NCBI GenBank assembly: GCA_026770705.1
Contig: JANJGN010000028.1
Location: 11,284,001 to 11,348,000, forward strand
Origin: Isurus oxyrinchus
Taxonomy: Eukaryota
DNA: 64,000 nt
Reading direction: 5' to 3'
A model generated the notes under the pieces. That model was given only the letters and a program-made list of their open reading frames with translations. It had not been told where the DNA came from and made no database searches. Position numbers and translations under genes: made by a program. This document shows, piece by piece, positions 7,873 to 58,871 of this stretch (its first letter is position 1; each line of letters opens with the position of its first letter).

Positions 7873-10800
7873 AGGCGGAATTTTCCTATCGCACCCGCGG
7901 CGGGTTTTGTGGTGGCTGGAGCAGAGAATCCAGGGTAGGCAAAAAGTCGGAAATCCATCAGTGTAAAAACAGTTTGTAATTCTCCAGATGGCGGGTTGGT
8001 TATCCCGCTGGCCAGTGATGTGAATGCATTTACATTCATTAAAATCTCATGAATGCTTATTAAAACAGCTGGTAACAGGAATCTTGTCAAGCCTTCTAAT
8101 CTTGCTTCAAGCTAGCGGGAAATTACGTCAGCCTCAAACCCGTTTGAAAAGGAGGGTATGCACAAGTCGGGCTTCAGTTTGCCTGTAACTTTGAGGTGAG
8201 TACAACATACATAGCCTATCTGCCATAGCGCTGCACCGGTCTTGTTGAGATGAATGCCAGAAAGCTGGGGCTTTAGGGTTAGTCTGTCCTGCTCTTTGGC
8301 TATGTTGTCCCAGAGAACACGACTGTGCTGTGGTACTCATGCAGGCCTCTATTTTCAGACAGTGGTCAGTACTGCGGTGGGGTTGGACAGTGCAAGGGTC
8401 TTCTACTCCGGTGGCTGAGACTGTTGTCCACAAGGGCATCACCGTGTAGTGGTAGTCAGGCAGAACTGCACTTTCATCCAGGGGTGGGCTGTGAGGCAAG
8501 GGTGGGGATGAGGAACACAAGGTGGGCAATGGAGAAGGAAGGCTGTGGAATGGCAGTGAGGTGGGGGGAAGGGTGAACATGAGTGGGCCTTTCTGGGGTC
8601 ACTCTCTAACTTGTTGCTGCAAAAGTGAACAGGAGTCTGCCCAGAAAGGAGGAAGACCTCCTTGCGATGAAAGCCACTGAAAAAGGCCAACGGCTTCGTT
8701 TACATCACAGTTGCTGCATCTCAAGAGTAATGCGTAGGAATTTAGAATTTGGGAATGCAGCAGTAGTGAAGGAGGCATAGCTGCATCATATATGGCATTC
8801 CATCAATGAAGGCCTGTCACGTGTTCACCAGATTTGATGTTCCTAATGGGCCAAAGAGCATCCACTCATTGACCCTGAGTATCTGATTGGTCATTAATAC
8901 GTCATATTGGAGATTGGAGCACAGAGCTAAGTTGGGTCACTCATCATAATTAAATCTTAGCATCCCATGCAGGGATCAAGACGTTACATATCTGTGATAC
9001 CATCTCAGCCACCTCGATGTGTGTGCTAGTGTCTCAGGGACAATGCAGCATCAGCCACCATGCAAGTAGAGCAGGAAAAACTATGGACCCTTACAGTTTC
9101 CACACATTTCATCTTCTGAGCTTCATTTTCTTTCCCCTTGAATCATTAATCCCTTCAATGTTTTCTTTCAGAGAGGAGGCCAAAGCACATATGGGTCCAG
9201 GGCTCAATGTTGCCTTTGTCAGGGTCCTAAATGCAATGGTGGAGATGAAGGAGACAAAGGAGATGCTGCACTCAGCTCCAGCAGGAGGCCACACTTGACG
9301 GACACAGTCAAGCAGAGCCAGAGCATGAACAGGAATATCAGGAGAAGCCCAGGCAACGGAGGTGAATCGCCAGACTTATGGTTTATTGTGGAAGAGTATC
9401 CTATTTACAAATGAGTAAGAGGCAATGCCATGCACATCTGCACTTGTCCCGAGCTCTGGTACAACACATATGCCACATTCTTCGTGAAGACCTGATGCCA
9501 CGTAGAATTGGAGGGCATCCCCTGCCAGTGGCCTTGAAGGTGACTGCAGCGCTCAATTTCTTTGCCTCTGGGTCTATCCATGGATCAACAGGGGACATGT
9601 GCGGCATCTCTCAGTCTGCAACACATGATGCATAAAGGAAGTCACAGATGTCCTTGACAAGAAGGTCCATCATTATGTCAGGTATTCTCTGGACAGAGGT
9701 AGCCAGGCTGCGAGATTCACTGGCTTTGCTGCCATCTCAGGCTTTCTAAGGGTACAGGGTGCAATAGACTGCACCCATGTGGCTATAACAGGCTCAATGG
9801 CAGCAGCCCCTAATGTTCATAAACTGCAAAGGCCACCATTCCATCGATGTACAACTGGTGTGTGATCATCAGAAGCGCATATTGCATGTTTGTGCATGAT
9901 ACCCAGGGAGCTGCTGTGACTCCTACATCTTGAGTCACCCCCTGGTACCTGAGATTTTCAAGGAGTCATTACCTCTGCAGGGGTGGATGTTTGGGGATAA
10001 GGGGTACCCACTGAAACGTTGGCTGATGACAGTGGTGCATGCCCTCAGAATTGTTCTGAGGACAGGTAGAACACTGTTCACTGCTCCACATGCTCCATTA
10101 TAGAGCGGACCATAGGGCTTCTGAAGATGTGCTTCAGATACTTGGACTGCTCTGGTGGCTCACTACAATACACTCCTGATAGGGTTTCCCACATCATCGC
10201 AGTGTGTAGTGCCTTTCGCAATCCAGAAATGCAAAGGGGTGAACCCCTGGCAGAGGATGAACTGGGGGAGGATGAGAGCTCATCGGAGAATGAAAAGCCA
10301 GAGGCCCAGGAACCTCAGGAGGCTGCTGAGGGTCGGTATGAGCACGATGATGCCATGGAGGAAGGAAGATGTGGGAGACATGTCCATGATACATTAATTG
10401 CTGACAGGTTCCAGGAAGAGTAAAGTTAAGTAGCCACATCTCTGCTAGCCCTCAATGTCATTCCCTTTCATCTCAGCCACTTGCAAACGAGAATGAGTCC
10501 TGCATCCACACTTGTGCATTCTGGCCTCATGAATCGCCAACCATGATCTCTGCTTTGGTCAGTGATGCCCTGTGAGTGAGCACATTCTGAGAACTGAAAG
10601 TAAACAGAGGAACAAGAGTGATGTGGGAGAAGACTTTGCCGCCATCTAATGATGCAAACACTTATGCGATTCAAGTGTGGATATGCCTGGGAATTTCCTC
10701 CCCAGTGCATGTCTTGTCTTCTGCCACTACCACTGAGGAGACACAAATGTTGCTAGAATATCAATGCTGATAAGCTGCCCTCACTCAAAGCTGTTCCTTG

Positions 10801-17801: not shown

Positions 17802-19585
17802 CCCTACCTGAAGGGTTTAACATAATTTGTGTTCAACAGCATTCATTTGCACTCATTTTACATCAATTGTGCTCAAAAGCGATTGTTTAGCCATCATTTA
17901 ACACAATAGCACTCAAAACCAATCATTTAAACATTATTTGGCATCAATTGCACTCAAAACCAATTATTTAGCTATCATTTAATATTACATGTACCAAAAC
18001 TGACAATGTCATTAATTTCCCCAAACCACAGCACTCAAACATTTGCGATTAATAACATTACTTATGCCGACACCAAAAATGATCAGAGTTTATTTTCCAT
18101 TTTTCTGAATTACGATAGCTTTAAACATCATAAAACTGAGCTAACTTTAGAAAAAGCAGACCCTATTTTGATTAGGTACTTTTATGTTTTTCTTTATAAC
18201 CTATAACTCGTGCAGCACAACCCTGCCCACAACCCCCGCCACACCACCCACCATCTTTCCCCTCCACCCCCCACCATGCTGACCCACCACCCTCACCCCC
18301 ACAACACTGCCCCACAACCTTTCCCCTCCACCACCACCCCAAACCCACCAACACCCCCCAGCCCTACCAACACCTCCCCATCACCCACCCCCCATATTGC
18401 CCCCATCCTCCCCACCCCCTCTTATTCCCCTTCCCCCTTCTCCTCTTTCCCCTCTCTCTTCTAACCCCCTCTCCCCCTCCTTCTTCTCCCCATACCCCCT
18501 CCCCTTTCTCCCATTCCCCTATTCCACCCCTCTCCTCTTCTGCGCCCCTTTCTCCCCCACTTCCGTCCCTTTGCCCTCTTTCCCCTACCCTCTTCTATCG
18601 CCCTTCCCCCCTCCCCACTCCAGTCTTCCTTCCCCCTCCCCTCTTCAATCCCTCTTACTCCTCCCCTCTTGAGTTCTTCCCCTCCCTCCCCTCCTCTTCC
18701 CACTCCCTTTTTGCACCCAAGGCCTCTCCCCTCTTTTGCCTCCCACTTCTTCCCTTCCTTACCACCCCACCGTGGAGTTTTCTGTTCACAAGGATGGTTG
18801 GAAACTGGAAGTGATGCTTTCTGGCCAGCCCTGGTGCAGATTTGAAGTTGGAGCGGGAACAGTGAGGACTGTGACAATAGGGTAACTATTCGGAGTCGTG
18901 GGAGATTGAGAGAGGTTGGTGGGGGGTTGGGGGGGTTTGGAAGGCCCGTGGCCCGGAAGGTTGGCGAGGCCTGAGACCTGGAGATTGGTGGATGGGGAGG
19001 GGCTGGATTTGAGGGTTGAGTTTGGACACAAGAAGGATAGAGGGGAGAGTTTAGAATCTGTAGGGAGGAGAGAGAGTTTGGAGGCTGGAGGGATGGGAGG
19101 AAGAGTTTGGAGGCTGGAGGGAAGGGGGGAGAGTTTAGACCCTGAGATTTTGGAGAGTTTGGACCCTGAGACCTGGGGGTGGGGGGGGTGGTGGTGAATG
19201 GGTATAAATTACAGACCCTGAGATTAAAATGAATTAAGAACTGTTGGAAATCAGGTGGTACTCTCAAACATGTATAGTGGAACCAATTTTTGGACAAAAT
19301 GAAAAACTGAATGAATTCAGTTGTTATTTAAATAATTAATTTCCTTATATTTTTCAGTGCAGATTGTTGAGCGCATTTGATAGCTTTGAGCATGCTGGAC
19401 AATTTTTAGCACACTGGGCAGCTTTGAGCACATTGGATACAGGTTTGAGTGCACTGGATATCCTTGAATGCACTATCTAATTTGATGTCAAATTCATTCC
19501 AAGTTAGAACTTTTGATGTCAAATTGTAATTGAGAGCATTGAATACACTTGAAAGCAAAATTTATGTTAAAATTTTCAGGTAGGG
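17802..19585. mobile_element. Non-autonomous TIR DNA element (possibly CMC/EnSpm-like) with a low-complexity core
   Basis: Imperfect ~45-bp TIRs CCCTACCTGAA...TTCAGGTAGGG and subterminal gcactcaaa repeats. No clean TSD, so the superfamily is uncertain. Confidence 0.6.
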
Positions 19586-22912: not shown

Positions 22913-23035
22913 CAGAACACTTGATGCCATTTCCTGACCAGCCATCTGCACAGGCACACTTGAAGCTTCCTGGAGTATTTGTACATATGGCATATTTGTC
23001 ACAATTATGTGCACTGATCTCACATTCATTAATAT
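22913..23035 (-). CDS. FBN1: Fibrillin exon, cbEGF18 ([41 protein letters not shown])
   Basis: 123 bp, AG/GT. It is the next domain in fibrillin order, after a 35.5 kb intron. Confidence 0.9.
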
Positions 23036-23767
23036 CTATAACAGAAAAAAAGTTCATTTAAAATAAAAGGATAAGGCAACGGGTTGTGTTAAAGCCTTCT
23101 CATTTAGTGGAATGCAACCTTATACATAGTCCTAGATCATTCGTAATTAAAGAGGTGCTGCTTTATGAAATCATTTTTACTTTTTGAAAAGGAAACAACT
23201 TGAGCTGATTTTTGTTAAGCCGTCATACCCAAAAGAAATGATAAATTGTTTCGAAAGATTTGTCACTGTTCTGGTAAATAAGTGCCCATAAATAAATGCT
23301 AAAAAGCTTGCCAAACACTTTTCATAATGGTGATACCCTTCTAAAATAAGTTAGATTACATTTTTAAATGTATTGTAATAAACCAATAATGACGTTAATA
23401 CATACAGTAACAAATTTCTTCAATGTTATTTTTAAGCATAATTTTATCACTATTACTGACTGACTCTTACTCAGTTGCTATATATTCAGTAGTTTTACTA
23501 CACTTCAGTATTAGTATTTTACTTTTGACTTGCTCTTGTTTAAATATCAACTTGCCTCCATGCAAGGAAAGATAAATAGGTCTCACAGTATTCTTGTACT
23601 TTCAGGTACATGACACGTATAATCAGTTTAAGAACAGGCAAAAGACCACTTTTTCATCTTCCAAATCTGTCCACTATTGTTAGTTGCTAGAGTAAGCAAT
23701 TTTATCCTTCACATATTTACCATTTGTGCTATTCCGCACTTAAGGTCTTATATCTGCTGATCTCATG

Positions 23768-26543
23768 GGAAGAATTTTCTGGTCAGCGAGCAGGGGTAGG
23801 CCCCCTCGATGACACGTAAAATGACGTTACCGTGCGTCATTTAGATTTTCAGGTCAATGGGGGCACAGCCGAGTTGGCTGCACACCCGCCGAACTGTCAA
23901 AGGCCTATTAAGGCCAGTTAAAAACTAGTTAAACAGTTAAGTGAGCTGCTCTTCCAACCTTAAGGTTGGTGGGCAGGCGAAGAGGCCAGGTGGCCTTCGC
24001 ATTTTTCATAATATGATAGAATTCTTCATCAAGATGGAGAGTGACGTAGTTGATTCTGAGACTTGGGTCCTGAATCTTAATAAAGGAAACTACGATGGTA
24101 TGAGGCGCGTGTTGGCTATGATGGATTGGGAAACATTACTTAAAGGGATGATGGTGGATAGGCAATGGCAAATATTCAAAGAGTGCACGGGTGAACTGTG
24201 ACAATTGTTTATTCCTGTCTGGCGCAAAAATAAAACAGGAAAGGTGGCCAAACCATGGCTTACAAGGGAAATTAGAGATAGTATTAGAGCCAAGGAAGAG
24301 GCATATAAATTGGCCAGAAAAAACAACAGACCTGAGGATTGGAAGCAGTTTATAATTCAGCAAAGGAGGACCAAGGGATTGATTAAGAAGGGGAAATTGA
24401 GTACAAGAGTAAGCTTGCAGGGAACATAAAAACTAACTGTAAAAGTTTCTGTAGGTATGTGAAGAGAAAAAGATTGGCGAAGACAAATGTAGGTCCCTTA
24501 CAGTCAGAAACAGGGGAATTTATAATGGGGAATAAAGAAATGACTAACCAACTAAATGCATACTTTGGTTCTGTCTTCACAGAGGAGGACACAAATAACA
24601 TACCAGAGATGTTGGGGAACACAGGGTTTAGTGAGAGGGAGGAACTGAAAGAAATCAGTATTAGTAGGGAAATGGTGTTGGGGAAATTGATGGGATTGAA
24701 GGCCGATAAATTCCCAGGGCCTGATAATCTACATCACTGAGTACTTAAGGAAGTGACCCTAGAAATAGTGGATGCATTGGTGGTCATCTTCCGAGATGCT
24801 ATAGACTCAGGAACAGTTCCTACAAATTGGAGGGTAGCTAATCTAAGCCCACTATTTAAAAAGGGAGGTAGAGAGAAAACAGAGAATTGTAGACCAGTCA
24901 GCCTGGCGTCTGTAGTGGGGAAAACTCTAGAGTCCATTATAAAAGATTTAATAGCTGGGAACGTGGAAAACAGTAGCAGAATCGGCCAGAGTCACTTGGA
25001 TTTATGAAAGGGAAATCATGCTTGACAAATCTACTGGAATTTTTCGAAGATGTAACTAGTAGAGTTGATGAGGGGGAGCCAGTGGATGTGGTTTATATGG
25101 ACTTTCAGAATGCTTTCAACAATGTCCCACATAAGAGATTGGCGTGTAAAATTAAAGCGCATGGGATTGGGTGTAGTGTATTGAGCTCATTAGAAAACTG
25201 GTTGGCAGACAGGAAACAAAGAGTAGGAATAAACGGGTCTTTTTCTGAATGGCAGGCAGTGACTAGTGGGGTACCGCAGGGATCAGTGCTGGGACCCCAA
25301 TTATTTAACAATATATATTAATGATTTAGATGAGGGAATTAAATGTAATATCTCCAAATTTGCAGACGACACAAAGTTGGGTGGGAGGATGAGCTGTGAG
25401 GAGGATGCAGAGATGCTTCAGTGTGATTTGGACAAGCTGAGTGAGTGGGCAAATGCATGGCAGATGCAGTATAATGTGAATAAATGTGAGGTTATCCATT
25501 TTGGTAGCAAAAACAGGAAGGCAGATTATTATCTGAATGGCTATAAATTGAAAGAGGGGAATGTGCGACGAGACCTGGGTGTCCTTGTACACCAGTTGCT
25601 GAAGGTAAGCATGCAGGTGCAACAGGCGGTAAAGAAGGCAAATAGTATGTTGGCCTTCATAGCCAGAGGATTCGAGTACAGGAACAGGGATGTCTTGCTG
25701 CAATTGTACAGGGCCTTGGTGAGACCACACCTGGAATATTGTGTGCAGTTTTGATCTCTTTATCTAAGGAAGGATGTACTTGCTATAGAGGGAGTGCAGT
25801 GAAGGCTTACCCGTCTGATTCCTGGGATGGTGGGACTGACATATGAGGAGAGATTGAGTCGATTAGGATTATATTTGCTGGAGTTCAGAAGAATGAGGAG
25901 GGATCTCTTGGAAACCTATAAAATTCTAACAGAACTAGACAGGGTGGATGCAGGAAGGACGTTCCCAATGGTGGAGGGGTCCAGAACCAGGGGTCACAGT
26001 CTGAGGATACAGGGTAGACCATTTAGGACTGAGATGAGGAGAAATTTCTTCACCCAGAGAGTGGTGTGCCTGTGGAATTCATTACCACAGAAGGTAGTTG
26101 AGACCAAAACATTGTATGTTTTCAAGAAGGAGTTAGATATAGTTCTTGGGGCGAAAGGAATCAAAGGATATGGGGAGAAAGCAGGAGCAGACTATTGAGT
26201 TGGATGATCATAATGAATAGCAGAGCAGGTTCGAAGGGCCGAATGGCTTACCTCTGCTCCTAGTTTCTATGAAACCTCATTCATGGGTGGGATGAGGTTT
26301 CATGAACTATTTTAAAATCTAATAAACATTTATACATTTATTCTTTGACACTTCCCAGCTCATGTGATAGTGTCACATGAGGCGACATGTTTTATAAGCT
26401 GAAAAATTCTTTATTTAAAAGTTGAAGACTGAAACAAATCTCCCCTGACACACCTCCATGCCTCAGGGAGATCTCTGCGCTCTTTCGCGCACATGCACGA
26501 TAGAGCGCAGGGAACCACTCAGGGAATCTGTCCCCTGCCCACA
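23768..26543. mobile_element. Harbinger-type MITE split by a CR1 insertion (parts 23768-24006 and 26271-26543)
   Basis: Both parts are collinear with the intact copy at 37785-38459. Left TIR ggaagaatttt; right end truncated. Confidence 0.7.
24007..26271 (+). mobile_element. 5'-truncated CR1 LINE (ORF2 RT), relatively young
   Basis: Long RT ORF fragments: KGKSCLTNLLEFFE, GVPQGSVLGP, KFADDTKL, VRPHLEYCVQF. Tail ...tagtttctatg. Confidence 0.92.
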
Positions 26544-27907: not shown

Positions 27908-28795
27908 TGGCATGGAGTCCAACCTGTGGTCCGTGGGCTGGATTGTGGCCCCCAGAGCCACTGTTCAAAATGCCAGTAAGTGAAACTGAATATTCTGCAA
28001 GCGGCGGCTCCCCCAATCACAGGCAATTCCGCTCCTGCATTTGCTGGTGAGTCTATCAGCAGCAAAGGTGGCAGGGAACAGGCTGTGATTTGAGGAGTGG
28101 TCAATACTAGCAACTGTGAATATGTAGAGGGAAAAGGATACAATTTCAGGAGGGGGAGAGACAGAGACACTGCGGCGCACGTGGGGCGCAACAGACTGTT
28201 CGGGGGGGGGGGGGGGCATTGGGGAGGAGAGACAGGCTGCCAAGGCTCATGGGAAAAGAGGGTCTGCCCAGGAATGTGGGGAGACAGAGAAGCTGCCAGG
28301 GCACGCGGAGAGTGGTAGAGACTGCTGGAGTCCGAGTGGGGGTGGGGTGACAAGACTCATTGCCGCAGTCTGTGTGTGTGTGAGAGAGACAGGGAGAGAG
28401 AGAATGAGAGTGTGTGTGTTTGTGTGCGAGTGAANNNNNNNNNNNNNNNNNNNNNNNNNNNNNNNNNNNNNNNNNNNNNNNNNNNNNNNNNNNNNNNNNN
28501 NNNNNNNNNNNNNNNNNNNNNNNNNNNNNNNNNNNNNNNNNNNNNNNNNNNNNNNNNNNNNNNNNNTGCATGTGTAAGGGACAGGGGGAGGAGGTGGGAG
28601 AGAGAGAGAGACTGTGGGCGTGCGTGTGTGTTAGAGAGAGGGGGCACGTGTGTATGTGTGAGAGAGAGAAAAAGAATGTGTGTGTGAGAGTGTGTATGTG
28701 AGAGAGGGAGTGTGTGTGTGTTTGAGTGTGTGTGTGATAGTGTGTGTGTCTGGCTCACTCCAAGTCTCAGGATTCTCGATCACTTGCACCCCCAC
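27908..28795. mobile_element. Possible hAT-type MITE containing (GA)n/(GT)n low-complexity sequence
   Basis: Left end ...gtccaacctgtggtccgtgggc resembles hAT MITE termini; the right end is degenerate. Confidence 0.3.
28435..28566. other. Assembly gap (132 N) inside a GA/GT microsatellite tract
   Basis: Run of n characters flanked by (gt)n/(ga)n. Confidence 0.99.
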
Positions 28796-29464: not shown

Positions 29465-30835
29465 CATAGAAACTAGGAGCAGGAGTAGGCCATTCGGCCC
29501 TTTGAGCCTGCTCCGCCATTCATTATGATCTTGGCGGATCATCCAACTCAATAGCCTGCTCCCGCTTTCTCCCCATACCCTTTGATCCCTTTTGCCCCAA
29601 GAGCTATATTTAACTCCTTCTTGAAAGCATACAATGTTTTAGTTTCAGCTACTTTCTGTGGGAATGAATTCCACAGGCTCACCACTCTCTGGGTGAAGAA
29701 ATTTCTCCTCATCTCAGTCCTAAATGGTCTACCCCATATCCTCAGACTGACCCCTGGTTCTGGACTCCCTCACCATTGGGAACATCTTTCGTGCATCTAC
29801 CCTGTCTAGTTCTGTTAGAATTTTACAGGTTTCCAAGAGATCCCTCCTCATTCTTCTGAACTCCAGCAAATATAATCCTAATCGACTCAATCTCTCCTCA
29901 TATGTCAATCCCGCCATCCCAGGAATCAGTCGGGTAAACCTTTGCTGCACTCCCTCTATAGCAAGTACATCCTTCCTTAGATAAGGAGACCAAAACTGCA
30001 CACAATATTCCAGGTGTGGTCTCACCAAGGCCCTGTGCAATTGTAGCAAGACATCCCTGCTCCTGTACTCGAATCCTCTGGCTATGAAGGCCAACATACC
30101 ATTTGCCTTCTTTACCGCCTGCTGTACTAGCATGCTTACCTTCAGCAACTGGTGTACAAGGACACCCAGGTCTCGTTGCACATTCCCCACTCTCAATTTA
30201 TAGCCATTCAGATAATAATCTGCCTTCCTGTTTTCTTGCTACCAAAATGGATAACCTCACATTTATCCACATTATACTGCATCTGCTATGCATTTGCCTA
30301 CTCACTCAGCTTGTCCAAATCACACTGAAGCATCTCTGCATCCTCCTCATAGCTCACCCTCCCACCCAGCTTTGTATCATCTGCAAATTTGGAGATATTA
30401 CATTTAATTCCCTCATCTAAATCATTGATATATATTGTGAATAACTGGGGTCTCAGCATCGATCCCTGCGGTCCCCACTAGTCACTGCCTGCCAGTCGGA
30501 AAAGACCCGTTTATTCATACTCTTTGTTTCCTGTCTGCCAACCAGTTTCCTATCCACTACACTACAAACACTACCCCCAATCCCATGCGCTTTAATTTTA
30601 CACGCCAATCTCTCATGTGGGACTTTGTTGAAAGCCTTCTGAAAGTCCAAATAAACCACATCCACTGGCTCCCCCTCTTCAACTCTACTAGTTACATCCT
30701 CGAAAAATTCCAGTAGATTTGTCAAGCATGATTTCCCTTTCATAAATCCAAGCTGACTCTGTCCAATTCTGCCACTGTTTTCCACGTGCTCAGTTATTAA
30801 ATCTTTTATAATGGACTCTAGAATTTTCCCCACTA
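29465..30835 (-). mobile_element. 5'-truncated CR1 LINE, same subfamily as 24007-26271, inverted
   Basis: ORFs 29729..30196 and 30453..30845 encode near-identical RT segments. Confidence 0.92.
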
Positions 30836-30963
30836 ATATTCCCAATATATTGCTTTTGTTGACTTGGAAGTGGTAGAGAGGTGCAAGAATTCAGAAAGGA
30901 AACAAAGGCTTTTATCCAGACATAGTGAGTCAACTATGGTTGACTGGTTCTTGTGAAATAGTG

Positions 30964-31831
30964 CAGCAAATCCTGGAGGGAGCTGCAGAAGCCATGCTCC
31001 TGTTTTACAACACAAGTGGCTGTATTCTGGTAAGATGAGTTTAAATGTCCCAAAGCTTTGAAAAGCCATGGAGAGAAGGTATGCATGTAAGGTAAGGGGG
31101 TAGGGTGCATAAGGGAGGGTAGGGTACGTGAGGAGAGTAGAGTGTGTGAGGCGAGTGGGGTGCGTGACGGGGCTAAGATGGGTGAGGGGGGGGTAGGGTG
31201 CGTGAGGGGTAAGGGTACGTGAGGGGGTAAGGGTGCGTAAGGGGGTTAAGGTGCATGGGGGTAGGGCATGTGAGGGGTATTGGGCGCATGAGGGGGGTAG
31301 GGTGCGTGGAGGGGTAGGGTAATGGGCGGGAATAGGATGCGTAAAGGTGTAGGGTGCGTAAAGGGGTATGGTGCCTAAGGGGATAGGGCATCTAAAGGAG
31401 TAGGGTGCTTAAGGGAGGTAGGGTGCTTGAGTTAAGGTGTTAGGGTGGAAAATGGGTGAGGTGGGTAGGGGGCTAGGCTGATCGGGTTGGGGAATAGTCG
31501 AGTTGGGAAGGGTTGTTGGGTTGGGGGCTAGTCAGGTCGGGTTGGGCGAGTGATTGGGGGATCAATTGTATAGTTATCCAGGATTTAGACTTTTTTTTCC
31601 CTGTCAAATATTTCCATAATTATTATCCAGGCAATTGAGACAGAGCTGTCTGAAGTTGGAGATTTCGGACATTTGTGGGGAGCCTGCGAATTGACTATGG
31701 AGGTTCAAATTTCCCAGACAATTCCCTCAGAGTCCTAGAGTTGGGAATTCCAAGGGGTCCCGTGGCGCACTTCTGGGATATGTCTGGTCTCTGAGCATCC
31801 AGAGACAAACTCCTCTCTCCACGATTTACTG
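30964..31831. mobile_element. Tc1/mariner-type MITE with a G-rich minisatellite core
   Basis: TIRs cagcaaatcctggagggag / ctctctccacgatttactg (16/19 match). The TA TSD is not preserved. Confidence 0.5.
31090..31430 (+). repeat. G-rich ~19-20 bp minisatellite (gggtagggtgcgtgagg-like)
   Basis: Directly visible tandem units. Confidence 0.8.
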
Positions 31832-36679: not shown

Positions 36680-37650
36680 ATGGTTGTTGTTGCTGAAGGT
36701 CAATCACCTCAGTCCCAAGATATCGCTGCAGGAGTTCCTCAGGGTAGTGTCCTCGGCCCAATCATCTTCAGCTATTTCATCAATGAACTTCCCTCAATCA
36801 TAAGATCAGAAGTGGGGATGTTCGTGGATGATTTCATAATGTTCAGATGCTGAAGCAGTCTGTAATCATGTGCAGCAAGACCTGGATAATATTCAGGCTT
36901 GGGCTGATAATTGGCAAGTAACATTCGTGTCACACATGTGCCAGGCAATAACCAGCTCCAACAAGAGAGAATCAAACCATCTCCCCTTGACATTTAATGG
37001 CATTATCATCACTGAATGCTCCACTATCAACATCCTGGGGTTACCTCTGACCGGAAACTGAACTGGACCAGTTTTATAAATACTGTGGCTACAAGAACAG
37101 GTCAGAGGCTAGGAATTCTGCAGCAAGTAACTCACCTCCTGACTCCCCAAAGCCTGTCCACCATCTACAAGGCACAAGTCAGAAGTGTGATGGAATACTC
37201 TCCACTTGCATGGATGAGTGCAGCTCCAACATCACTCAAAAAGCTCAACACCATCCAGGACAAAGCAGCCTGCTTGATTGGCATACCATCCACTACTTTA
37301 AACAATCACTCCCTCCATCATCGGCACAGTGGCAGCATTGTGCACCATCTACAAGATGCATTGCCTCGTCAAGGTTCTTTCCACAGCACCTTCCAAACCC
37401 GCAAACTCTACCACTGAGAAGGGCAGGGAAGCAGATGCATGGAAATACCACTATCTGCAAGTTCTTCTCCAGGCTACACACCATCCTGAGTTGGAATTAT
37501 GTCACCATTCCTTCACTGTCACTGGATCAAAATGCTGGAACTCTCTGTAGTGGTTCAAGAAGGTGGCTCACCATGACCTTCTCAAGGGTTGGGCAATAAA
37601 TGCTGGCCTAGCCAGTGGTGTCCGCATCCCGTGAACAAATAAAAAAGAAA
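36680..37650 (+). mobile_element. CR1/L2-clade LINE 3' portion (probable partner LINE of the SINEs)
   Basis: GVPQGSVLGP, MFVDD, YKAQVRSVMEYSPLAW. The 3' tail gggcaataaatgctggcc...catccc is shared with the SINEs. Confidence 0.85.
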
Positions 37651-38460: not shown

Positions 38461-39350
38461 AGTTCATTTATATATATTATGAACAGCAGTGATCCTTGTA
38501 CCGACCCCTGGGGACCTCCATTGTATACCTTCCCTTGGTTTGAAAACCATCATTCACCATTATTACGCATTCCCTGTCACTCAGCCAATGTCATATCCAA
38601 CCTGCCACTGTACCTTTTATTCCGTGGGCCTAAACTTTGCTGACATGTCTATTATGTGGCACTCTATCAACAGCCATTCAGAAGTCCATGTAACCACATC
38701 GACTGCATTACCCTCATCAACCTTCTCTGTAATCTCATCAAAAGATTTAATCAAGTAAATACGGTTTGCCTTTAACAAATCTGTGCTGGCCTTCTCTAAT
38801 TGATATTTGTCCAAGTGACTATTAGTTTTGCCCCGGATTATTGTTTCTAAAAGTTTTCCCACCACCACTACTGGTCTGTAGTTGCTGGATTTATTCTTAG
38901 AACCTTTTTGAACAAGGGTGTAACATTTGCAATTCTCTAATCCTTTGACACTACCCCTGTAACTAAGGAGGATTGGAAGATTATGGCCAGTACCTCCACA
39001 AGAGTTAATGTTACATCCCACAGAATCCACATATGCATCCCATTGGGTCCTGGTGACTTATCAATTTTAAGTATAGCTAGCCTTTCTAATATGTACTCTT
39101 TATCAATTGTTAGCCCATCCAGTATCTCAATTACTTCCCCTTTCATTATGACTTTGGCAGTACTTCCTTCCTTGACAAAGATAAATGCAAAGTACTCATT
39201 TATGCAAAGTCTCACTTTTTGCCTCCATGCATATGCCCTCTTTTTGGTCCCTTATTGAACCTATTCTTCCCCTTGCTACTCTTTTACTATTTATATTCCT
39301 ATAGAAGACTTTTGGATTTCCTTTTATATTAGCTGTCTGTCTCTTCTCAA
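38461..39350 (-). mobile_element. Old CR1 LINE ORF2 fragment
   Basis: KIDKSPGPNG, NYRPV..GKLLETII, KVDEGNAVDVV. Confidence 0.8.
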
Positions 39351-42605: not shown

Positions 42606-43878
42606 GGCCTGGATTTTCATTGATTTGAGTTGACTCAGGAGCCCTTTAAAAATGGTGGGTGGGTCCTGATTCTTGGATTTCAACCCCATTATTGAGCTGT
42701 CAAATTTTCAGGAGTGCCTTTAAAGGATTTGGTCTAGTTCCTGTCAAAAGTCTGCATCCAGCATTCTTGACCTGGCCAGGTGCATTGCAGGGATAGGCAT
42801 CTCTTACTCCTCCGTAATTTTCATGGAGTCTGGCCAGGTTTTTAAATAGTTGTGGTTCACAGCCCTTCAGAGGAGTCGTGAACCCAAGTCTGCATGAGGG
42901 GACCTTTTAAAAGGTAAGTTCAAAACGTCCCCATCATTCCCCTTATGCCAAGCTATGGCAGGTTGATGCCCAATGAGCCACTGCACACTTTCTAGAAACA
43001 GTGAACACTACATGTCCCCTACGCCAAATGCTGAGAGCCCAGATAGTTATTAAAATACCAGAACATCTACTTCCCAGAGCAAACATTGTTTGATTGATAG
43101 CTCAGGCTCTCTGATCTCTGCTGTCAATTTCACAATGTTTGGTTACACTAGCTAAGTGGTTTCAAGGGTTTGTGGTTTTTGTAGCTTTAAAAGGGCCTGG
43201 ATGATTCGCACTTCTATTAGCTTGTAGTGCAGACTCTTTTTTTCAAACATAGGAGAAAGTTATCAATGGATTACTTTCTTTCAAAGATTTTTTTTACACA
43301 TTCACTATACCTTTCATTGGTTCTAGAAAGTATACAGTGGGTCAATGAGCATTGAAGTGCCACAGCTTGGCATAGGGAGAATGAGAGGCCATAGGGGGTG
43401 GATGGAAGGGCAGAGCTTGACATAGGGGGCATGAGGGGCCATAGGAGGTGGGTGTAAAGGCAGAGCTTAGCAAATGGGGGCTTGAGGAGACTTGGGGTTG
43501 GGTGAAGGGTAGATCTTGGCATAGGTGGTGAGAGGAGTCATAGGGTGGGTGGGGGGCATGAGATGAGATCGATAGGGCAAGGTAGTATTTTGAGGGTGAA
43601 GGGGGTGTGAGGAGTGAAGGTTGGAGAGCCTCTGTGTTTTCATTTTAACTAGGACAAAGTCCCACAGCATCGAGGTGGGTCTTTTAAATAGGCCACCTCC
43701 ATAACTGGCAACCACTGTGGCTCCCTCTGCACTTCTTCCTAGGTTGGTTGGTCTGGCTCCAGCTAGCCCCCCAATCCCTAGCAATGAAGATCCTGCCTTT
43801 GTGGGCACATTCTCCTGAGGCGGGTGGGCCGAGCCGGGAATTTTCCCAACTCCCACCACAAGGAAGAAAATCCAGGCC
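42606..43878. mobile_element. Harbinger-type MITE
   Basis: Perfect 13-bp TIR ggcctggattttc / gaaaatccaggcc; TSD ATG/ATG. Confidence 0.75.
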
Positions 43879-45694
43879 ATGGTGTCAGTGCTTCAATATA
43901 ATTTCTCACTCTGTTGCCTGGTATTTTTTAAACTCTTCCTATATATCTTGACAAAAATTATTGCCACAAGTGGTCATTACCTTGTTAAATGGCCTTGTTT
44001 AGTGCCTGAAATTTTGATCAAATGAGAAAAGTTGTTTAACTAGAAGTCACTAATATGTAACAAATACTAAGAAGGGGTAATTGATAATACAACACAAAAT
44101 TGTCGTAGTGGAAAGGTATTTCTGTGTGCCTTGTTAATTGAAGTTAAATGTTTGCCATGTACTAAGCCAAGCTTTGCTTAAACTTTAATGGTTTAACACA
44201 GGATGAATGGCAAATTACCATTCACATGGTTTATAGCCTCCACTAAGATTTCTATATGATCTCCCTGTTATTATGATGCAAGTTTGCACAGTTCACCAGA
44301 GATTGTTAAGGCTATTCATTTCAAAACAGTTACATACAGCAATTAAAAATACATAAGTGAAAACTGTAGTAATGATACTCTCACTCTTCACAGGAAACAA
44401 TATTTAGATCTTCTGAGAGATCAAGAGGGCCAGCTTTGGCCCAAAGTTAGAGAGTGATTAACAGAAATTGAGTGAGGTCATGTTTACTCAGCTTAAAGTG
44501 GAAAACAAAGAAGGAAATGCAAATAGGACAATTTCTTAAAACATCAAGAAAGTATTTAAGATACCAGAAATATAAACCATGATCTGTGTTTAACTGAATA
44601 ATATATGGGAAACATTTATGTTCTCATATTTCCTTTATTGTTTTTATGAAAACAAAACAGCACAAAATCCAATTGATGCCAATAACTAAATGCCAAAACT
44701 TCCTAAACCAGAAATAAAGTGCAGACATGAAGTCCCTGTATCCAATGCTTATTGAATGAGTCACTGAAGTTTATGACTGTGCCATATTTACAATTAAATA
44801 AATACAGCATGCAACAAAAATGTAACACAAGTACGTTTTGAAGGAAAGTGTGTCTGCATTTAATTACGTCCAATAAACTACTTGGGAATGAAATAATCTA
44901 TAAGAACCCAGAAATTCTTTGAATTTATATTTTGTTTACTGCTTGAATGAAGGTGTACTTGGACTGAAATAAGCTGCATGTGCAATTTTGAAATGTGAAC
45001 GAGTGTACCTTGGTGTTGCTCAAGTCATTAGGAGACCATGTTCTCAAACAATTCATTGGTCCCATGCTCTCAGTGAGGTGTTGTGCTTGAATAATGCAAA
45101 TTGAAGGCTCTATGATGCTTGCCTTAAGTCCAACTAACGTTCCCTTGATTGTGCTTCCTTGTTGGGAGTACAGGATTGGTGGATATATTCTATAAAGAAC
45201 TATGCAATATGGCAACAAACACTGAATAGCAGGCCTCAATAACCAATAATTCTTAAATGCAAAGGCAGCTCAAATGTTTATATTCCTGAATCTCCCGCAG
45301 GTGTGCATGGGTTGGAGTCCCAGACCTACTGGTCTGTAAACCTGTTTTGTCCTACTTGAGTTTTGCCAGTTTTCAACCGGGAAGAGCAAGCCATTATTTT
45401 CAATAGAGAGAATAAGGAACACAATTTAATTTACCTCTCTAGAACTATATCTCTTAGTTGCCCATCACAGAGCATCACTTCTGGCACCTTTACACAGATC
45501 CCCACTCTGATCAGACTACCCTTCATTCAGAAAATATATATTTGCAAGCATTCTACAATGCTACACAACAAAAAGAAAATTCCAGAATACAGAAATGTCA
45601 AAATGTTCTATTTGTATTAATTGTTACTTGTATCAATTAAGGTTAAGTACATACAGGTGGAGGGCATTGATTGGCTGGTTACTTGAGTTCACAT

Positions 45695-47475
45695 ACACAT
45701 ATAAAGAGGCTTGGCTTAAATAGCCAAGTGGTTATGGTACTGGGTTTGTAACCCTAAGATCAAGAGCTCAAATCTCACAATGGCAAACTATGAAACAATG
45801 TAACTTCATCTGAAACAGATGGAAATGGGTTTGTGCTCAAAAGAGTATCACAAGTTCAAATCTCACAATGGCAAACTATGAAACAATGGGCTTGGCCTAA
45901 ATAGCCAAGTGGTTACGGTACTGGGTTTGTAACCCCAAGATCGAGAGTTCAAACTCACAATGGCAAACTATGAAACAATGTAACTTCATCTGAAACAGAT
46001 GGAAACGGGTTTGTGCTCGAAAGAGTATCAAGAGTTCAAATCTCACAACGGCAAAACTATGAAACAATGTAACTTCATCTGAGACAGATGGAAACGGGTT
46101 TGTGCTCGAAAGAGTATCAAGAGTTCAAATCTCACAACGGCAAAACTATGAAACAATGTAACTTCATCTGAGACAGATGGAAACGGGTTTGTGCTCGAAA
46201 GAGTATCAAGAGATCAGATCTCACACTGGCCAACTATGAAACAATGTAACTTCATCTGAATAGGAACAGATGGAAACGGGTTTGTACTCGAAAGAAAATC
46301 AAGAGTTCAAAAGGCTTGGCCTAAATAGCCAAGTGGTTATGGTACTGGGTTTGTAACCCCAAGATCAAGAGTTCAACTCTCACAATGGCAAACTATGAAA
46401 CAATTTAGGGCTTAGGCTTGGCCTAAATAGCCAAGTGGTTATGGTACTGGGTTTGTAACCCCAAGATCAAGAGTTCAAATCTCACAATGGCAAACTATGA
46501 AACAATGTAACTTCATCTGAAACAGATGGAAACAGGTTTGTACTCAAAAGAGTTACACATATAAAGAGGCTTGGCCTAAATAGCCAAGTGGTTATGGTAC
46601 TGGATTTGTAACCCCAAGATCAAGAGATCAAATCTCACACTGGCCAACTATGAAACAATGTAACTTCATCTGAATAGGAACAGATGGAAACGGGTTTGTA
46701 CTCGAAAGGAAATCAAGAGTTCAAAAGGCTTGGCCTAAATAGCCAAGTGGTTATGGTACTGGGTTTGTAACCCCAAGATCAAGAGTTCAAATCTCACAAT
46801 GGCAAACTATGAAACAATGTAACTTCATCTGAAACAGATGGAAACGGGTTTGTACTCGAAAGAAATCAAGAGTTCAAATCTCACAATGGCAAACTATGAA
46901 ACAATTTAGGGCTTGACCTAAATAGCCAAGTGGTTATGGTACTGGGTTTGTAACCCTAAGATCAAGAGTTCAAATCTCACAATGGCAAACTATGAAACAA
47001 TGTAACTTCATCTGAAACAGATGGAAACATATTTGTACTCAAAAGAGTTACACATATTAAGGCTCTGTTCCTGCACCTATTTGCTTGGCCTAAATAGCCA
47101 AGTGGTTATGGTACTGGGTTTGTAACCCCAAGATCAAGAGTTCAAATCTCACAATGGCAAACTATGAAACAAGGTAACTTCATCTGAATAGGAACAGATG
47201 GAAACGTGTTTGTACTCGAAAGAGTTACATACTCGAAAGAGTTACACATATAAAGAGGCTTGGCCTAAATAGCCAAGTGGTTATGGTACGGGGTTTGTAA
47301 CCCCAAGATCAAGAGTTCAAAAGGCTTGGCCTAAATGGCCAAGTGGTTATGGTACTGGGTTTGTAACCCTAAGATCAAGAGTTCAAATCTCACAATGGCA
47401 AACTATGAAACAATGTAACTTCATCTGAAACAGATGGAAACGGGTTTGTACTCGAAAGAGTTACACATATAAAGA
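45695..47475 (+). repeat. Tandem array of tRNA-Thr(UGU)-derived SINE-like units
   Basis: 10 heads ggcttggcctaaatagccaagtggttatggtactgggtttgtaaccccaagatcaagagttcaaatctc, with A box, TGT anticodon loop and B box, plus a modular 3' domain. Flanked by acacatataaaga direct repeats. Confidence 0.85.
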
Positions 47476-47659
47476 ATAATTGGTTTAACTCCAAAAGAGT
47501 ATAAAGACCAACTGACATGAGTTAGTGGAGTCAGGAAATCTATACCTGCAATGTTTCACTCTGTGAAAAAATCTATTCTGTGTAAAAACTGGCTTTGGTT
47601 TCTTCCATCACCAACTGAATATCTGGAGTATAACATTCATTTCCATTTTATTATTACTT

Positions 47660-48360: not shown

Positions 48361-51300
48361 TATCAATGTATAAATAATTACACGGCATGGCAATCACCTT
48401 GTTAAAGACAATTTCTAGTTAAACAAGTGATGGACATTGATTATCCCATCTAAACAGAATAAAAAGATACGGTTGGAACACTTTGTGTGGAAGCTACTTG
48501 GAAGTCAGTAGCACTAAGGAGCTGTCTTGAAAATAAATCAGCTTGAACAAAAAGAACAGCCTGGGTTAATTCTTCTACAACCACTTATTGACAGAAACAC
48601 AGTGGAAGAGGATGAACTTTTAGCTTTGCTGATTGATTGCTGTACATGAAGTTTTTTGTCTCAATCCTCTGAGGGAAAAGAAGTGTAATGTTGCTGACAA
48701 TTTAAGTTACGGAATGGCGGTGCAAAATTGCAAGCTTTGACTATCCACCATTTTTTTCTGACTCTGAACCTTATCAGCAATAGAATCCTGAAGTTGAAAT
48801 GTGGTCCCGGGTTTCTTCTATACCCTGGGAGAAGCAAGGTTTGGCTTTGGTGTTATCATTACCAGCCAAAACAAAAATAAAGAGTAAGGTATTTTCAGAC
48901 TGAAAAGCGGATGATTTGGATCATGAAGAGGGATTGAACATTCTGTTACAATTTTTGGATAAGTTTTACTAAAAGGTGAGCTATTGGAAGCATATGACGC
49001 TTGGACGATCTTTGATAGGTTTAGGAAATCAGATGATGAGTCCATGGAAGAATATATCATGGATTTTGATAAATGGTACAGGAGACTAGAGAGATTTGAA
49101 CTTGAAATTCCAGAATCCGTATTGGTGCTTAAATTACTGGACTGTACTCTCATTTCCCATGTTGATTGTCTTTTAGTACTAACAGGGGTTCAATTCCAGG
49201 GGAAAGAATCTCTCCTATGAGAGATATGGCTGCTGCCCTAAAAAAAAAAACGGGTAAACATTCATTCCCTGCCACTTTCTCAGCAAATGCGAACAACTAT
49301 GCTATGAAGCGAAGGATAGAGGATTCAATGGTGGCTGAATTTCAAGGTCGACCAAATATTAGATGAAGATTCCAATACAAAATTGGGGTAAATGACAAGA
49401 GGTCTGAAAATGGTCGTAATCCTAGCCAGTTTGAGAGTCGGGACAAAAAGTGTGTCAGGGATGGTGACCGTAGGCATTTAAACCCAAAAAATGCATGGGG
49501 AATGGGTAATCGAAGTTTTCAGTGTGATTCCCCAGTATCATTACTGGACAACTGCCCATGGTGAAGGAGTCGCGTTTTTGAAGTGACCCACGAGACTGAT
49601 TCATCTGAAATTGAAAATGATGATCGTGACTTCCATGATGGGACTGTATTGATCACTGAGAGTTTGAGACCAGTGATGAGTATCTTGATGGTAGATTCCT
49701 TCAACTGTGCAGTTCTGGACAATGGTTGCACTTCTATGGTGTGTGGCATGGACTGGCTTGGCTGCTTTCTGGAGTCTCTCAATGAGGCAGACTAACGAAA
49801 GGTCAAGGAGTATGGACGCTCTACCTGCTTCAGGTTCGGAGATGACAATACATCAACATCCTCCAAACTGGTGGTCCTCCCTTGTAAGATAGCAGGGATC
49901 AATCTGTTTATCAGTACTAGCGAGATATCGCTACTGTTAAGTTGATCTGCGATGAAGGCGGCTCAGATGGCACTAGATATGAAGAATGATAGAGCAGTCG
50001 TGTTTGGAAAAAATGTGGATCTACATTTTACTCAGTGAGGCCATTACTCCTTGCCACTAAGGAAGCCAGAGATTTCTTATCAAAAAGTTCATGAAGTTTT
50101 GTTAACTGCTGAGAAAAATTTGGTGGACGAAAAGAAGATCAATTGGAAATTACACAGACAGTTTGCACATCCGGCACCACAGAAATGGAAGAAACTACTT
50201 CAAGACGCAGGAATGGTCGATAAAGGATACGATGACCATAATGAACAAATCACTGCTCAGTGTGAAATTTGTCTTAAATATCGCAAGACACTACCACATC
50301 CTGTTGTGAGTTGCCACTAGTCAGGGAGTTTAGATGCAGTGGCAATGGACTTGAAAGTTTGAGGCAAGAATAAGGGTGTTTTTTTTACTACACTTCATAG
50401 ATATGGCAACTAGATTTAGCCTATCCACTGTGATACACAGTAAAGACAAAGGGACCATTGTCGATAAGGTCATAGAGAAATGGGTAGGAACAGGATTAGG
50501 AACACCAATGAAGTTCCTCACAGATAATGGTGGGGAATTCGCCAATGAGAAATTTCGAGATATGTATAAAAATTTAAACATCATAGTTATGCACACTGCA
50601 GCTGAGAGCCCATTTAGTAATGGTCTTTGTGAAAGAAGTCATGTTGTAATAGACAACATTACATAAAATATTGGCTGATCAACCAGATTGTAGATTGCAA
50701 ACGATGCTAGCCTGAATGGTGCATGCAAAGAGCTCTTTGCAAATGGTTGGGGGGTGCAGTCTGTACCAGTTGGCGTATGGAAGAAATCTGAAGATGCCTT
50801 CGGTGTTATTGGATGCTGCCCCTACTTTGGAAGGCACTAGCATTAGCTCCACATTTTCTGCTCATCTGAACGCTTTGCATGTGGGCAGAAAAGCTTTCAT
50901 TAAAGTAGAAGTTTCAGAGAAAATTCGGTAAGCCCTACAGCACTGCATAAGACCATCAGGAATTCAGTTTAGACAAGGAGATATGGTATATTATAAAAGG
51001 GAAGGCTGGAAAGAGTGAAAAGTACCTGGCAAGGTAATAGAGAGTGATGGGAAAGTAGTAATTGTGCAACACAGCAATCAAACTGTTAGGGTACATTCTT
51101 TGCGGTTAATTGGTACTGACTATACCTTTACAGGTTCTGAACAGACATAGAATGTGAGGAGGCACCATGCACTTCACATACACACACATTGGGTAGTTAT
51201 AAGGAGCAGATGATGGCTGACACAGGATTAACTGACTATGAACAAAGTAACACTGAGGTACAGGATAACGCTATTCGTGCAAAAGGGCAGCTACCCAAAG

Positions 51301-53595
51301 TAGGAACAAAGGTAACACACATGCCAGAAAGGACCAGTGTGTGGAGGGGTGCCACTATCATTGGGAGAGTAGGAAAGGCCACTGGTAAATACAAACATTG
51401 GCTAAATGTGCAGGGTGAAGGATAGGAGACAAGACCCATGGATTGGCAAACTGAGGTAAAGACATGGAAACCCAGAAAGTGCACTATGAATTCTGACAAT
51501 AGACCAGAAGGTGGTTGTGACCCTAGAACAAAATCACGCACTTGTGAACAGGGTTCTGCTCACATGGGAGAAAGATCCTATAGTAGTAGTCCAGAAGGGG
51601 AGGGGTATGTGAGTAGAGGCCATACCTTAAGAATGACTAGCGAGCAAGCTAGGAATCTCAATAGAAGTAGAAGTCGTTATGGCTGAGAGATTTTAGTAGC
51701 TGCTAATAAATTAGAAAATAAGCTGATAAAGGAAGCCAAGCAGAAAGAGTTGGAAAGTTGGAAGGAATTTGGGGTATATTCTGAAATACCTGACAGAGGA
51801 CAGCCAGCTTTATCTCACAGATGGATCTGTACAGAAAAGGTACTCCCAGATGGCACATATAAGGCCAAAGCGAGGTTAGTAGCCTGAGGCTTTGAAAGGA
51901 GACTACGAGATCAGGATGTCCAAGTGGACTTGCCTACTGCGGGGAAAGTGAGTTTGAAAGTTAGTTTTTTTTTTAAGCTATTCTGGCATCCTATTCCTGA
52001 GAGGGCAAATTGATTGATATAAAGGCTGCATTTTACAGGGAGAGAAGTTTCAAAGGGAAGTTTTTTGAAACTGCCCAAAGAAACCGGTGATGTAGAAGGA
52101 AAGCTATGGAAATTGGGCGTGTGCTTATGGACTGAATGATGCGTCAAGAGTATGGTATTTTTCTGTGAGGTCTGTCCAGTTGAAAGCAGGTTGCATTCAG
52201 TTAAAGGCAGACCCTGCGATGTTCTACTGGTACCATAAGGAGAAACTAGCTGGAATATTTATCATGCATGTTGATGATTTCTTGTAGAGAAGCTCTGTAG
52301 AATTGAACGATGGGTAATCGAGAAGATAAAGAAGGAATTCAAGGTTGGAAGTCAGGCTTCAGGGGCCTTTAAATACATAGGTCTAGACAATAAGCAGAGC
52401 AAGTTAGGAGTGATACTGAATCAACAATCTTATCTAGAATATGTAAATCATATCCCAATAACTTGGGTTAGATCCTCATAAAAAGAGGATCCTGCTATCA
52501 AGGAAGAAACGGAACAGTTAAGAAGCTTGATTGGGCAGTATGCACTCAGACTAGGCCTGACGCTAGTTATGATGTGTTGGAGCTGTGTACCATGATGAAA
52601 CATGCTACAGTTGAGGAAGTTCTGAGAGCAAATAAAACACTACAAAAATTAAATTTGGAGAGGTGTGTGCTCAAGTTTCTAGCCATGGGTGATCCAGGAG
52701 ATATGAAGTTGGTCATTTTTAGCGATGCTTCACATGCCAATCTTCCAGATGGGTACTCTAGCACAGCAGAGTTTATAATATTCTTGGTGGGAAAGAATGA
52801 TGGATGTTGCCCGCTGGCTTGGGAAGCTAAGAAAATAAAAAGGGTGGTGAAAAGCACCTTAACTGCTGAAATGCTGGCCTTAGTAGAAGTGCTAGATATG
52901 GGGGTTTACTTATCCAATATACTGACAGAAATATTATATAAGGGGCAATATGAGAAAAGTTTACCCATAGAATGTTATGTTAATAACTGGTCCCTTTGGG
53001 ATAATGTTCATTTGATGAAAAGTGTCACTGAAAAAAGACTAAGAATAGACCTAGCCAGCATAAAAATGTTAGAGAGAAGAGAGATCTCTAAGATACAATG
53101 GGTTGACATAAGACACCAACTATCAGACATTTACAAAAAGAAGTGCCTGCTCTAAGAAATTATTAAACATATTGGAAGAGGGGTGTATTATGTTATAATG
53201 ATGAAATGGGGAAAAAATGTTTTGTAATTGTTTATATATATTTGGTAAAGGAAATAAGGATATAAATGTGGAAATACATACATTATTCCCTTCTGTTTGT
53301 TTCAAAAAGAATTTTCTTTAATTTTTTTTCAATTTAAACAAGAAAAGAGAGGAATCTGTCAATGTATAAATAATCACACTGCATGGCAATCACCTTGCTG
53401 AAGACAATTACTAGTTAAACAGGTGATGGGCACTGATTATCCCATCTAAACAGAATAAAAAGATAAAGCTGGAACACTTTGTGTGGAAGCTACTTGGAAG
53501 TCAGTAGCACTGAGGAGCTGTCATGAAAATGAACCAGCTTGAACCAAAATACCAGCCTGGATTAATTCTTCTACAACCACTTATTGAGAGTAACA
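48361..53595 (+). mobile_element. Full-length decayed Ty1/Copia LTR retrotransposon (GalEa-like)
   Basis: 239-bp LTRs at 48361-48599 and 53357-53595, 5-bp TSD aacta/agcta, degenerate iMet PBS and a PPT. Order is gag - PR (AVLDNGC) - IN (LHRQFAH..CEIC, FLTDNGGEF) - RT (KARLVA, MHVDDF) - RH (FSDASHAN). Confidence 0.9.
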
Positions 53596-58526: not shown

Positions 58527-58652
58527 CTGTACAACCAGTTGTTCCTTTCTTAACAGAGTAGCCCAGTTCACAGTGACAAATGAATGATCCTTTAGTGTTC
58601 TCGCAGGAGCCACTGAGACATATATTTGGATTAAGTTCACATTCATTGACAT
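58527..58652 (-). CDS. FBN1: Fibrillin exon, cbEGF17 ([42 protein letters not shown])
   Basis: 126 bp, AG/GT, cbEGF consensus. NPNICLSG is FBN1-like; YSVKKGTTG is FBN2-like. Confidence 0.9.
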
Positions 58653-58871
58653 CTGTGGATCAAGGTTAAAACTAAGTTACAGCATCCACTGCTCCAGTAT
58701 ATTGTGCAATTGCGAATTGTTTAAGTAGGTTCTATACAGCTCGAGTGATGCTCTTCTAAACATTACACAATTCTTGACATTGTTTTTAATATATTCTCAT
58801 GTTATATACTCAGCTTAACACTTGAACAATAATACTTGAATATTAGCAAGACAACTACAAACAAGTCTAAC

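Follow-up and report, generated by a model that had tools for sequence, protein, structure and literature searches.

The closest described system to the array reported here is that of the SINEU elements of crocodilians, which are moved by the Tx1 LINE Tx1-Mar and, like the present elements, are described as forming tandem copies around a target duplication in the sections of that report available to us (PMC4494074). Composite insertions are known from other lineages: 33 bipartite chimeras and one tripartite chimera are recorded for Magnaporthe, and a handful of tripartite ones for mammals, in the available text of the two reports concerned (PMC2104539, PMC4476161). According to the accessible part of its description, about half of the copies of the Dip/B2 SINEs lie in head-to-tail multimers of up to eight units (PMC8466645), and squamate sSat, as far as its available account goes, likewise forms long tandem arrays of SINE sequence (PMC10702118). 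Purified LINE ORF2p is described, in the portion of the report at hand, as jumping between templates in vitro and so forming concatemers (PMC10830420). While such end-to-end jumps are well established for the test tube, the genomic products described so far are rare two- and three-part chimeras. The literature searched, with supplements, most subscription papers and Repbase Reports outside its scope, contained no account of the SINE family described below or of chains with source-locus trailers.

The window analysed here, a stretch of 64,000 nucleotides of Isurus oxyrinchus DNA (contig JANJGN010000028.1, positions 11,284,001 to 11,348,000), contains a chain of SINE units that was likely built on site through jumps of a Tx1 reverse transcriptase from the end of one RNA to that of another. 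Re-priming at the regenerated target and local re-copying then likely added to its length. The chain is regarded as the output of selfish elements, with no host function implied.

Anatomy of the array

The ten near-identical tRNA-Thr-like heads listed in the original prediction were all recovered, one of them starting at 46313 rather than 46312, with a mean pairwise identity of 96.8% over 58 nt (Table 1). They carry an A box, a Thr-like anticodon arm and a B box. Nine of the ten were matched by the Rfam tRNA model at 22-27 bits, all under its gathering score of 29, and ARAGORN found no tRNA gene in the 64-kb window. In the tRNA-model alignments the D stem of the heads pairs and about three pairs are left in each of the acceptor and T stems, instead of the cloverleaf with a 7-bp acceptor and a 5-bp T stem that marks a tRNA gene. 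The sub-gathering scores, the ARAGORN result and the broken stems rule out the heads as tRNA genes, and the earlier view of them as SINE-like heads with poorly paired stems holds. The heads of the window array do not derive from U1 or U2 snRNA.

The basic monomer, first put at ~160 bp, measures 142 nt and consists of the tRNA-like head and a tail with two hairpins, whose fold is better than that of shuffled sequences (z -3.5 for 47410-47466). In the complete copy at 47323-47464 the head has both the A and the B box, and the two-hairpin tail is common to the 3' end of a Tx1 LINE. The modules and their scrambled order (head plus tail, head only, extra tails) are as previously described; overlooked were the 13-nt target-site duplication ACACATATAAAGA and a foreign 31-nt spacer. 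The duplication bounds the array and recurs twice inside it, dividing it into segments of four, four and two heads, and an 18-mer spanning SINE end and target duplication has five genome-wide matches, all of them on contig C5 or in the window array. The stretch 46205-46567 aligns with 46619-47060 except for one tail. The feature does not stop at 47475, where its end had been placed, and runs to 47507, taking in a 25-nt LINE end and a short duplication. No run of four or more T occurs within the array, the first one lying at 47646. On neither strand of the array did a ribozyme family match at E<=1, and the other Rfam searches gave none at gathering score; a retrozyme was rejected on the missing Rfam ribozyme match, together with tail hairpins in which no hammerhead core is visible by eye.

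Table 1. Coordinates of the array, its host intron and other repeats of the window
Feature	Position	Strand	Basis or remark
DDE_Tnp_4 (Harbinger-type) transposase fragment	10070..10423	+	
Low-complexity purine/pyrimidine and GT-rich tandem stretches	18200..19330, 28100..28780, 30830..31430, 43340..43650		
Fibrillin-type cbEGF exon after host intron	22914..23036	-	
Decayed LINE fragments	24387..26198, 37016..37599	+	CR1/L2-like by eye
Decayed LINE fragments	29729..30890, 38617..39251	-	CR1/L2-like by eye
RVT_1 match	25263..25751		
N run	28435..28566		
Dispersed repeat that served as target, left part	45622..45700	+	right part about 47508-47635
Target-site duplication, outer 5' copy (ACACATATAAAGA)	45695..45707	+	sequence; motif also at array-free C5 paralog
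Segment 1: heads 45708, 45889, 46313, 46415; tails full, truncated, extra	45708..46556	+	
Locus-private junction	46300..46321, also 46714..46735, 47310..47331	+	3/3 genome-wide matches in window array
Second locus-private junction	46394..46413, also 46895..46914	+	2/2 genome-wide matches in window array
Target-site duplication, internal copy	46555..46567	+	
Segment 2: heads 46568, 46727, 46910, 47083; mostly variant repeat of 46205-46567	46568..47245	+	alignment
Foreign 31-nt spacer, same as 3' flank of solitary C14 SINE, ending in T run	47052..47082	+	putative Pol III read-through trailer
Target-site duplication, second internal copy	47244..47256	+	
Segment 3: head-only unit 47257 and complete 142-nt monomer 47323-47464	47257..47464	+	
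Target-site duplication, 3' copy	47463..47475	+	
25-nt 3' stub of second Tx1 subfamily (47476-47500) and short duplication ATAAAGA	47476..47507	+	older insertion, same target
Integrase core (rve) fragment, broken	50355..50666	+	same intron as array
Frame like LTR-retrotransposon polyprotein end, broken	52472..53155	+	downstream of rve, same intron
Fibrillin-type cbEGF exon before host intron	58534..58653	-	best PDB match fibrillin-1

Host intron and target site

Minus-strand calcium-binding EGF exons flank the array, with fibrillin-1 as best PDB match, and the array thus appears to lie antisense in a fibrillin-type intron, as had been proposed. A motif scan found no exon between the two cbEGF exons, a result that also leans on the usual exon order of fibrillin genes. 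The dispersed repeat that served as target has a paralog on C5 (L173), to which its two parts are 91% and 81% identical. The paralog has the same target motif, is free of a SINE array, and holds the same 25-nt stub between two duplication copies together with a different later insert, so that this site was hit more than once. The stub has 32 matches in the genome; a LINE 3' UTR lies directly upstream at 13 of the 14 loci fetched, the fourteenth being the C5 paralog. In a related organism there are contigs that open with the stub and run on into the same flank, so the stub predates the split; the age of the array is not informed by this. The contigs of that organism break at repeats on either side, and among the joints listed none skips the array, an outcome without weight for or against an empty site. 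Elsewhere, 11 of 50 C1 loci share one repeat target (L081, L087, L091, L101, L105, L112, L116, L120, L125, L126 and L128) and the remaining targets are varied; L009, L024 and L025 are also listed for repeated SINE and LINE insertion at the shared-repeat site. The upstream part of this shared repeat resembles a Harbinger-type transposase end by eye, and the repeat has a weak match at window positions 11107-11235.

The SINE family and its Tx1 partner

A 29-nt word from the head has 15,568 exact matches in the 4.98-Gb genome and its reversed control none, an excess far above chance, giving a copy number of at least 15,568 with exact 29-mer matches alone counted. The best 40 monomer matches are spread over many contigs. 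Among 52 C1 loci sampled from the first 100 C1 matches, 25 hold two or more heads, up to 32, which is an upper estimate because the choice of loci by an exact word favours those with many heads; the expectation that other loci would be arrays with other module orders was borne out. Target-site duplications of 8-16 nt were found at 36 of the 60 loci whose 5' edge is clean (42 come from C1 and 18 were picked by BLAST), the other 24 having none of at least 8 nt. Most of the duplications begin with TAC or TA and overlap the final bases of the element itself. By sequence the head comes nearest to the genome's Thr(CGT) tRNA (45/72 and 44/74 identity), ahead of Thr(AGT) (42/74), Asn (40/74) and Met (36/72), in a comparison with five tRNAs fetched from the genome or its arrays that includes no Thr(TGT) gene. 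With a boxed, tRNA-derived head, dispersed short non-coding copies, duplications and a 3' end shared with a LINE, the elements have the make-up of a SINE2 family. By these sequence characters the window array is a member of a young tRNA-derived SINE family with a Tx1 partner, a family that may already be catalogued in repeat databases. The original reading of a young, amplifying SINE-satellite hybrid stands for the SINE; amplification as a satellite does not, the arrays being dispersed and mostly provided with target-site duplications of their own, and the partner LINE and the signature of template jumping had been overlooked.

The last ~87 nt of the SINE are common to an intact Tx1-clade LINE, which runs directly into the SINE B box and tail at 20 of 25 LINE loci fetched and ends just before the shared tail at the other five; several SINE arrays abut a LINE end. 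At locus L066 the LINE has an ORF1 of 716 codons from stop to stop, to which no Pfam domain was matched, and an ORF2 of 1287 aa with endonuclease (AP), RT and zf-RVT zinc finger domains. The best named match of ORF2 is Xenopus Tx1 ORF2 (48% identical over 1304 columns, 62% in the RT region), and the ESM Atlas returned generic RT clusters. The two ORFs, the ORF2 domains and the similarity to Tx1 point to a Tx1-clade element, the copies of which are 98% alike. A second Tx1 subfamily has the same terminal hairpin without the shared tail. The LINE may have taken its 3' end from the SINE, because the shared part starts in the tRNA-like region and some LINE copies are without it.

Spacers and source copies

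The 31-nt spacer of the window array has five genome-wide matches, four of which stop at TTT(T) and are followed by a SINE head, while the fifth (L034/L204, C14) is a single SINE with a duplication of its own and a flank continuing past TTTT. Two of the four spacer-bearing arrays carry the diagnostic changes of this C14 source throughout; in the window copy and in one other they are confined to the part near the unit end. The window unit before the trailer differs from the source at several upstream sites, which calls for either an internal switch or an older allele. In the source itself 14 nt over the A box are missing and the B box is changed; two daughters keep both. It appears from these letters to be a master that died after its activity. 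A second spacer has 12 matches, of which ten join a head, one joins a LINE fragment and the last is a solitary source on C11, followed by T5. Trailers that stop at T runs point, if indirectly, to transcription by Pol III. For a third spacer, with 22 matches, no solitary T-ended source was found: 20 are the target duplication of an array on C7. In the remaining two the same end-duplication-head junction lies inside an array on C1 and one on C33, and the array on C1 has a different duplication of its own. The simplest reading, at which these sequences hint, is a read-through multimer of the C7 array inserted elsewhere.

In a count over 77 loci, with exact within-locus repeats dropped, 28 of 69 foreign spacers have a TTT no more than 8 nt from the following head. 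The outer flanks show this in 8 of 60 cases (Fisher p=7e-4 for foreign spacers versus outer flanks), and the copies of the duplication in 2 of 38. The spacer classes behind these counts are automatic and crude, some being decayed duplications; 41 of the 69 foreign spacers have no TTT near the junction, and an untemplated A on the cDNA would likewise read as T.

5S and tRNA copies in sister arrays

A full-length 5S rRNA (model positions 1-120) lies between SINE units in L005 and L027, and 5S-like sequence is fused to a head at two further loci, one match in that search not being 5S. The head after the 5S bears the same rare change in L005 and L027, which may mark a re-copied 5S-headed chimera. 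A tRNA-Asn is present in array L011, a tRNA-Met in array L089, and six longer tRNA matches in array L129 (C1, 18.08-18.09 Mb), which has 32 heads and contains tRNA copies of 82 nt, three in number and every one repeated within a block of 2117 nt. Since the 5S and tRNA sequences are without the LINE tail, they are best explained as acceptors of a jump. The C7 array (G000, C7, about 82.726-82.742 Mb; L134 and L135) spans more than 14 kb and comprises ~70 heads; its target duplication occurs 20 times, and it also includes a 5S rRNA copy and block repeats of higher order. Sister arrays also contain LINE ends.

As side observations, inverted SINE tail pieces adjoin the array at L022 and L028, possibly through twin priming, and single insertions at L032/L133, L043, L048, L067, L116, L117 and L118 include 5'-truncated LINE pieces, which all point the same way and take turns with SINE units or with one another.

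Junctions and probable local re-copying

When junctions of truncated units were compared over 80 loci, 23 of 108 within-locus pairs proved identical, as did none of 1845 between-locus pairs. Such junctions consequently form on site, and they would then sometimes be copied together with the duplication; the same between-locus result rejects pre-existing master multimers as their source. The junctions bear short extra bases (G, A, GG or GGG), and 59 truncation points are spread over 31 positions, three of them at the tRNA 3' end. Nested insertion at the B box, considered as an origin of the head-only units, fits the unit at 46727 and not the other two with the same junction.

Two junctions private to the window array are repeated two and three times across its segments, for which local re-copying also seems to be needed. 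The route is left undecided among repeated priming or second-strand slippage within one event, a circular intermediate, DNA duplication and assembly error; a circular intermediate carrying target DNA has been proposed for Zorro3, in the available part of that report (PMC3510499). With no run of four T before 47646, multimers are possible, and transcription as a multimer is plausible given also that the C7 junction recurs in the C1 and C33 arrays. The contigs of the public runs, one of which may be RNA, show no RNA end and cover intron flank as well, so that they are silent on transcription.

Proposed formation of the array

In the proposed mechanism, Pol III would transcribe a SINE copy through its flank to the first T run, and ORF2p would bind the 3' hairpin, nick at a TAC motif and prime by microhomology. 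Once at the 5' end of that RNA, the enzyme would add a few untemplated bases and jump to the 3' end of a nearby RNA, which might be a SINE transcript with its trailer, a broken SINE RNA, 5S, a pre-tRNA or LINE RNA. Closing on the target would regenerate the primer site, so that further rounds or later insertions could stack up with the duplication between them. Arrays free of internal terminators could then be read through in some cases as multimers and re-inserted.

The main alternative holds that there was no serial jumping, and that single insertions followed one another at a regenerated or preferred target and were multiplied at the DNA level by slippage or unequal exchange. The internal target duplications, the repeated use of one site at the C5 paralog, the repeated private junctions and the block repeat of L129 all agree with it, and tandem SINEU-3 copies around a duplication were so interpreted in the available section of that study (PMC4494074). 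As a complete explanation it is nevertheless unlikely, for it leaves aside trailers from other chromosomes that are cut at a T run and fused to the next head without a duplication, and the 5S and tRNA sequences that lie inside arrays without the LINE tail. Sequential insertion and DNA duplication probably account for part of the array length, the on-site chain of jumps remaining the preferred account of its origin.

The RNAs might instead have been ligated by an RtcB-type activity before reverse transcription and the chimeric RNA inserted in one pass, as has reportedly been suggested for U6/L1 chimeras. Whole RNAs are indeed joined 3' end to 5' end; the downstream partners, however, begin at the first bases of the head, where a 5' triphosphate is expected, and RtcB does not accept a 5' triphosphate. 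The short extra bases and the lack of any junction shared between loci also speak against ligation, which we hold to be quite improbable even though mammalian chimeras favour U-ended Pol III RNAs in the accessible text of the report on them (PMC4476161).

The suggestion of a multimeric Pol III gene, in which the heads of the array would act as RNase P/Z cut points releasing small host RNAs, can draw on the retained A and B boxes, the absence of an internal terminator, the tail fold and the recurrence of the C7 junction, but is highly improbable with about three acceptor pairs, truncation points scattered rather than gathered at the tRNA 3' end, a folded part that is the LINE-shared tail, a structure different at every locus and private junctions of the window array that are found nowhere else in the genome. 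Equally hard to credit is an assembly artefact of a high-copy repeat: no contig of the public runs spans the array and its repeated junctions could be false duplications, yet locus-specific duplications flank and punctuate many arrays, spacers trace to real source loci, and both flanks are identical letter for letter in another run, possibly from the same source sample.

Beyond this locus, we advance tentatively, with doubt slightly the stronger, that serial jumping is the normal insertion mode of this Tx1/SINE pair. Each event would chain several flank-tagged Pol III transcripts, and arrays would be read through and re-inserted, feeding forward from a dispersed SINE to satellite-like blocks of more than 14 kb without unequal crossing-over and leaving, genome-wide, a fossil record both of what Pol III transcribed in the germline and of the master SINE copies. 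That would be a retrotransposition route to the birth of satellites, by which dispersed elements become satellite-like DNA. Because chains make up about half of the sampled loci, natural junctions are available for counting in their thousands, and such counts could teach what rules jumping, the joining of second strands and the regeneration of targets follow in a living germline. Source copies, as a rule very difficult to pick out for SINEs, can be read directly from the trailers that are kept, and the number of active copies becomes testable by pattern search alone. Template jumping, which is made use of in RNA sequencing, may be something at which the Tx1 enzyme is unusually good.

Comparison with known systems

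In the available account of SINEU, recurrent 5' additions are ascribed to template jumping or switching and a preference for DNA-transposon targets is described, which may be set beside the one repeat target shared by 11 of 50 loci here; its heads are given there as U1/U2-derived and not Pol III, with no 3' end in common with the LINE (PMC4494074). The present family differs in its tRNA-like head, in the ~87 nt shared with the LINE, a 3' end going back as far as the tRNA B box, and in its chains of 10-70 heads with trailers, 5S and tRNAs. The U6/L1, MINE and tripartite chimeras likewise join copies of different RNAs, head to tail, inside a single pair of duplications, and chimeric retrogenes also favour U-ended Pol III RNAs, as far as the available text of these reports goes (PMC2104539, PMC4476161); compared with them, the multi-RNA chains described here are routine and longer. 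Jumping in vitro, as related in the accessible part of that work, involves an untemplated addition followed by copying of a new template into concatemers, as proposed here, and was demonstrated with purified enzyme, whereas our case is built from the genomic products of a Tx1 enzyme (PMC10830420). The Dip/B2 elements are poly(A)-tailed SINEs of the L1 type, for which the sections available leave the origin of the multimers open and report neither trailers nor captured RNAs (PMC8466645). In sSat, according to the portion of the report at hand, an internal part of the SINE is repeated and homogenised, which is ascribed to unequal recombination (PMC10702118); the arrays of the present family are not of that construction, consisting of complete units with both target duplications and foreign RNAs in between, and only the extra tails of 87-89 nt resemble sSat units. 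What is new with respect to these precedents is the scale of the chains and the source-locus barcodes that they carry.
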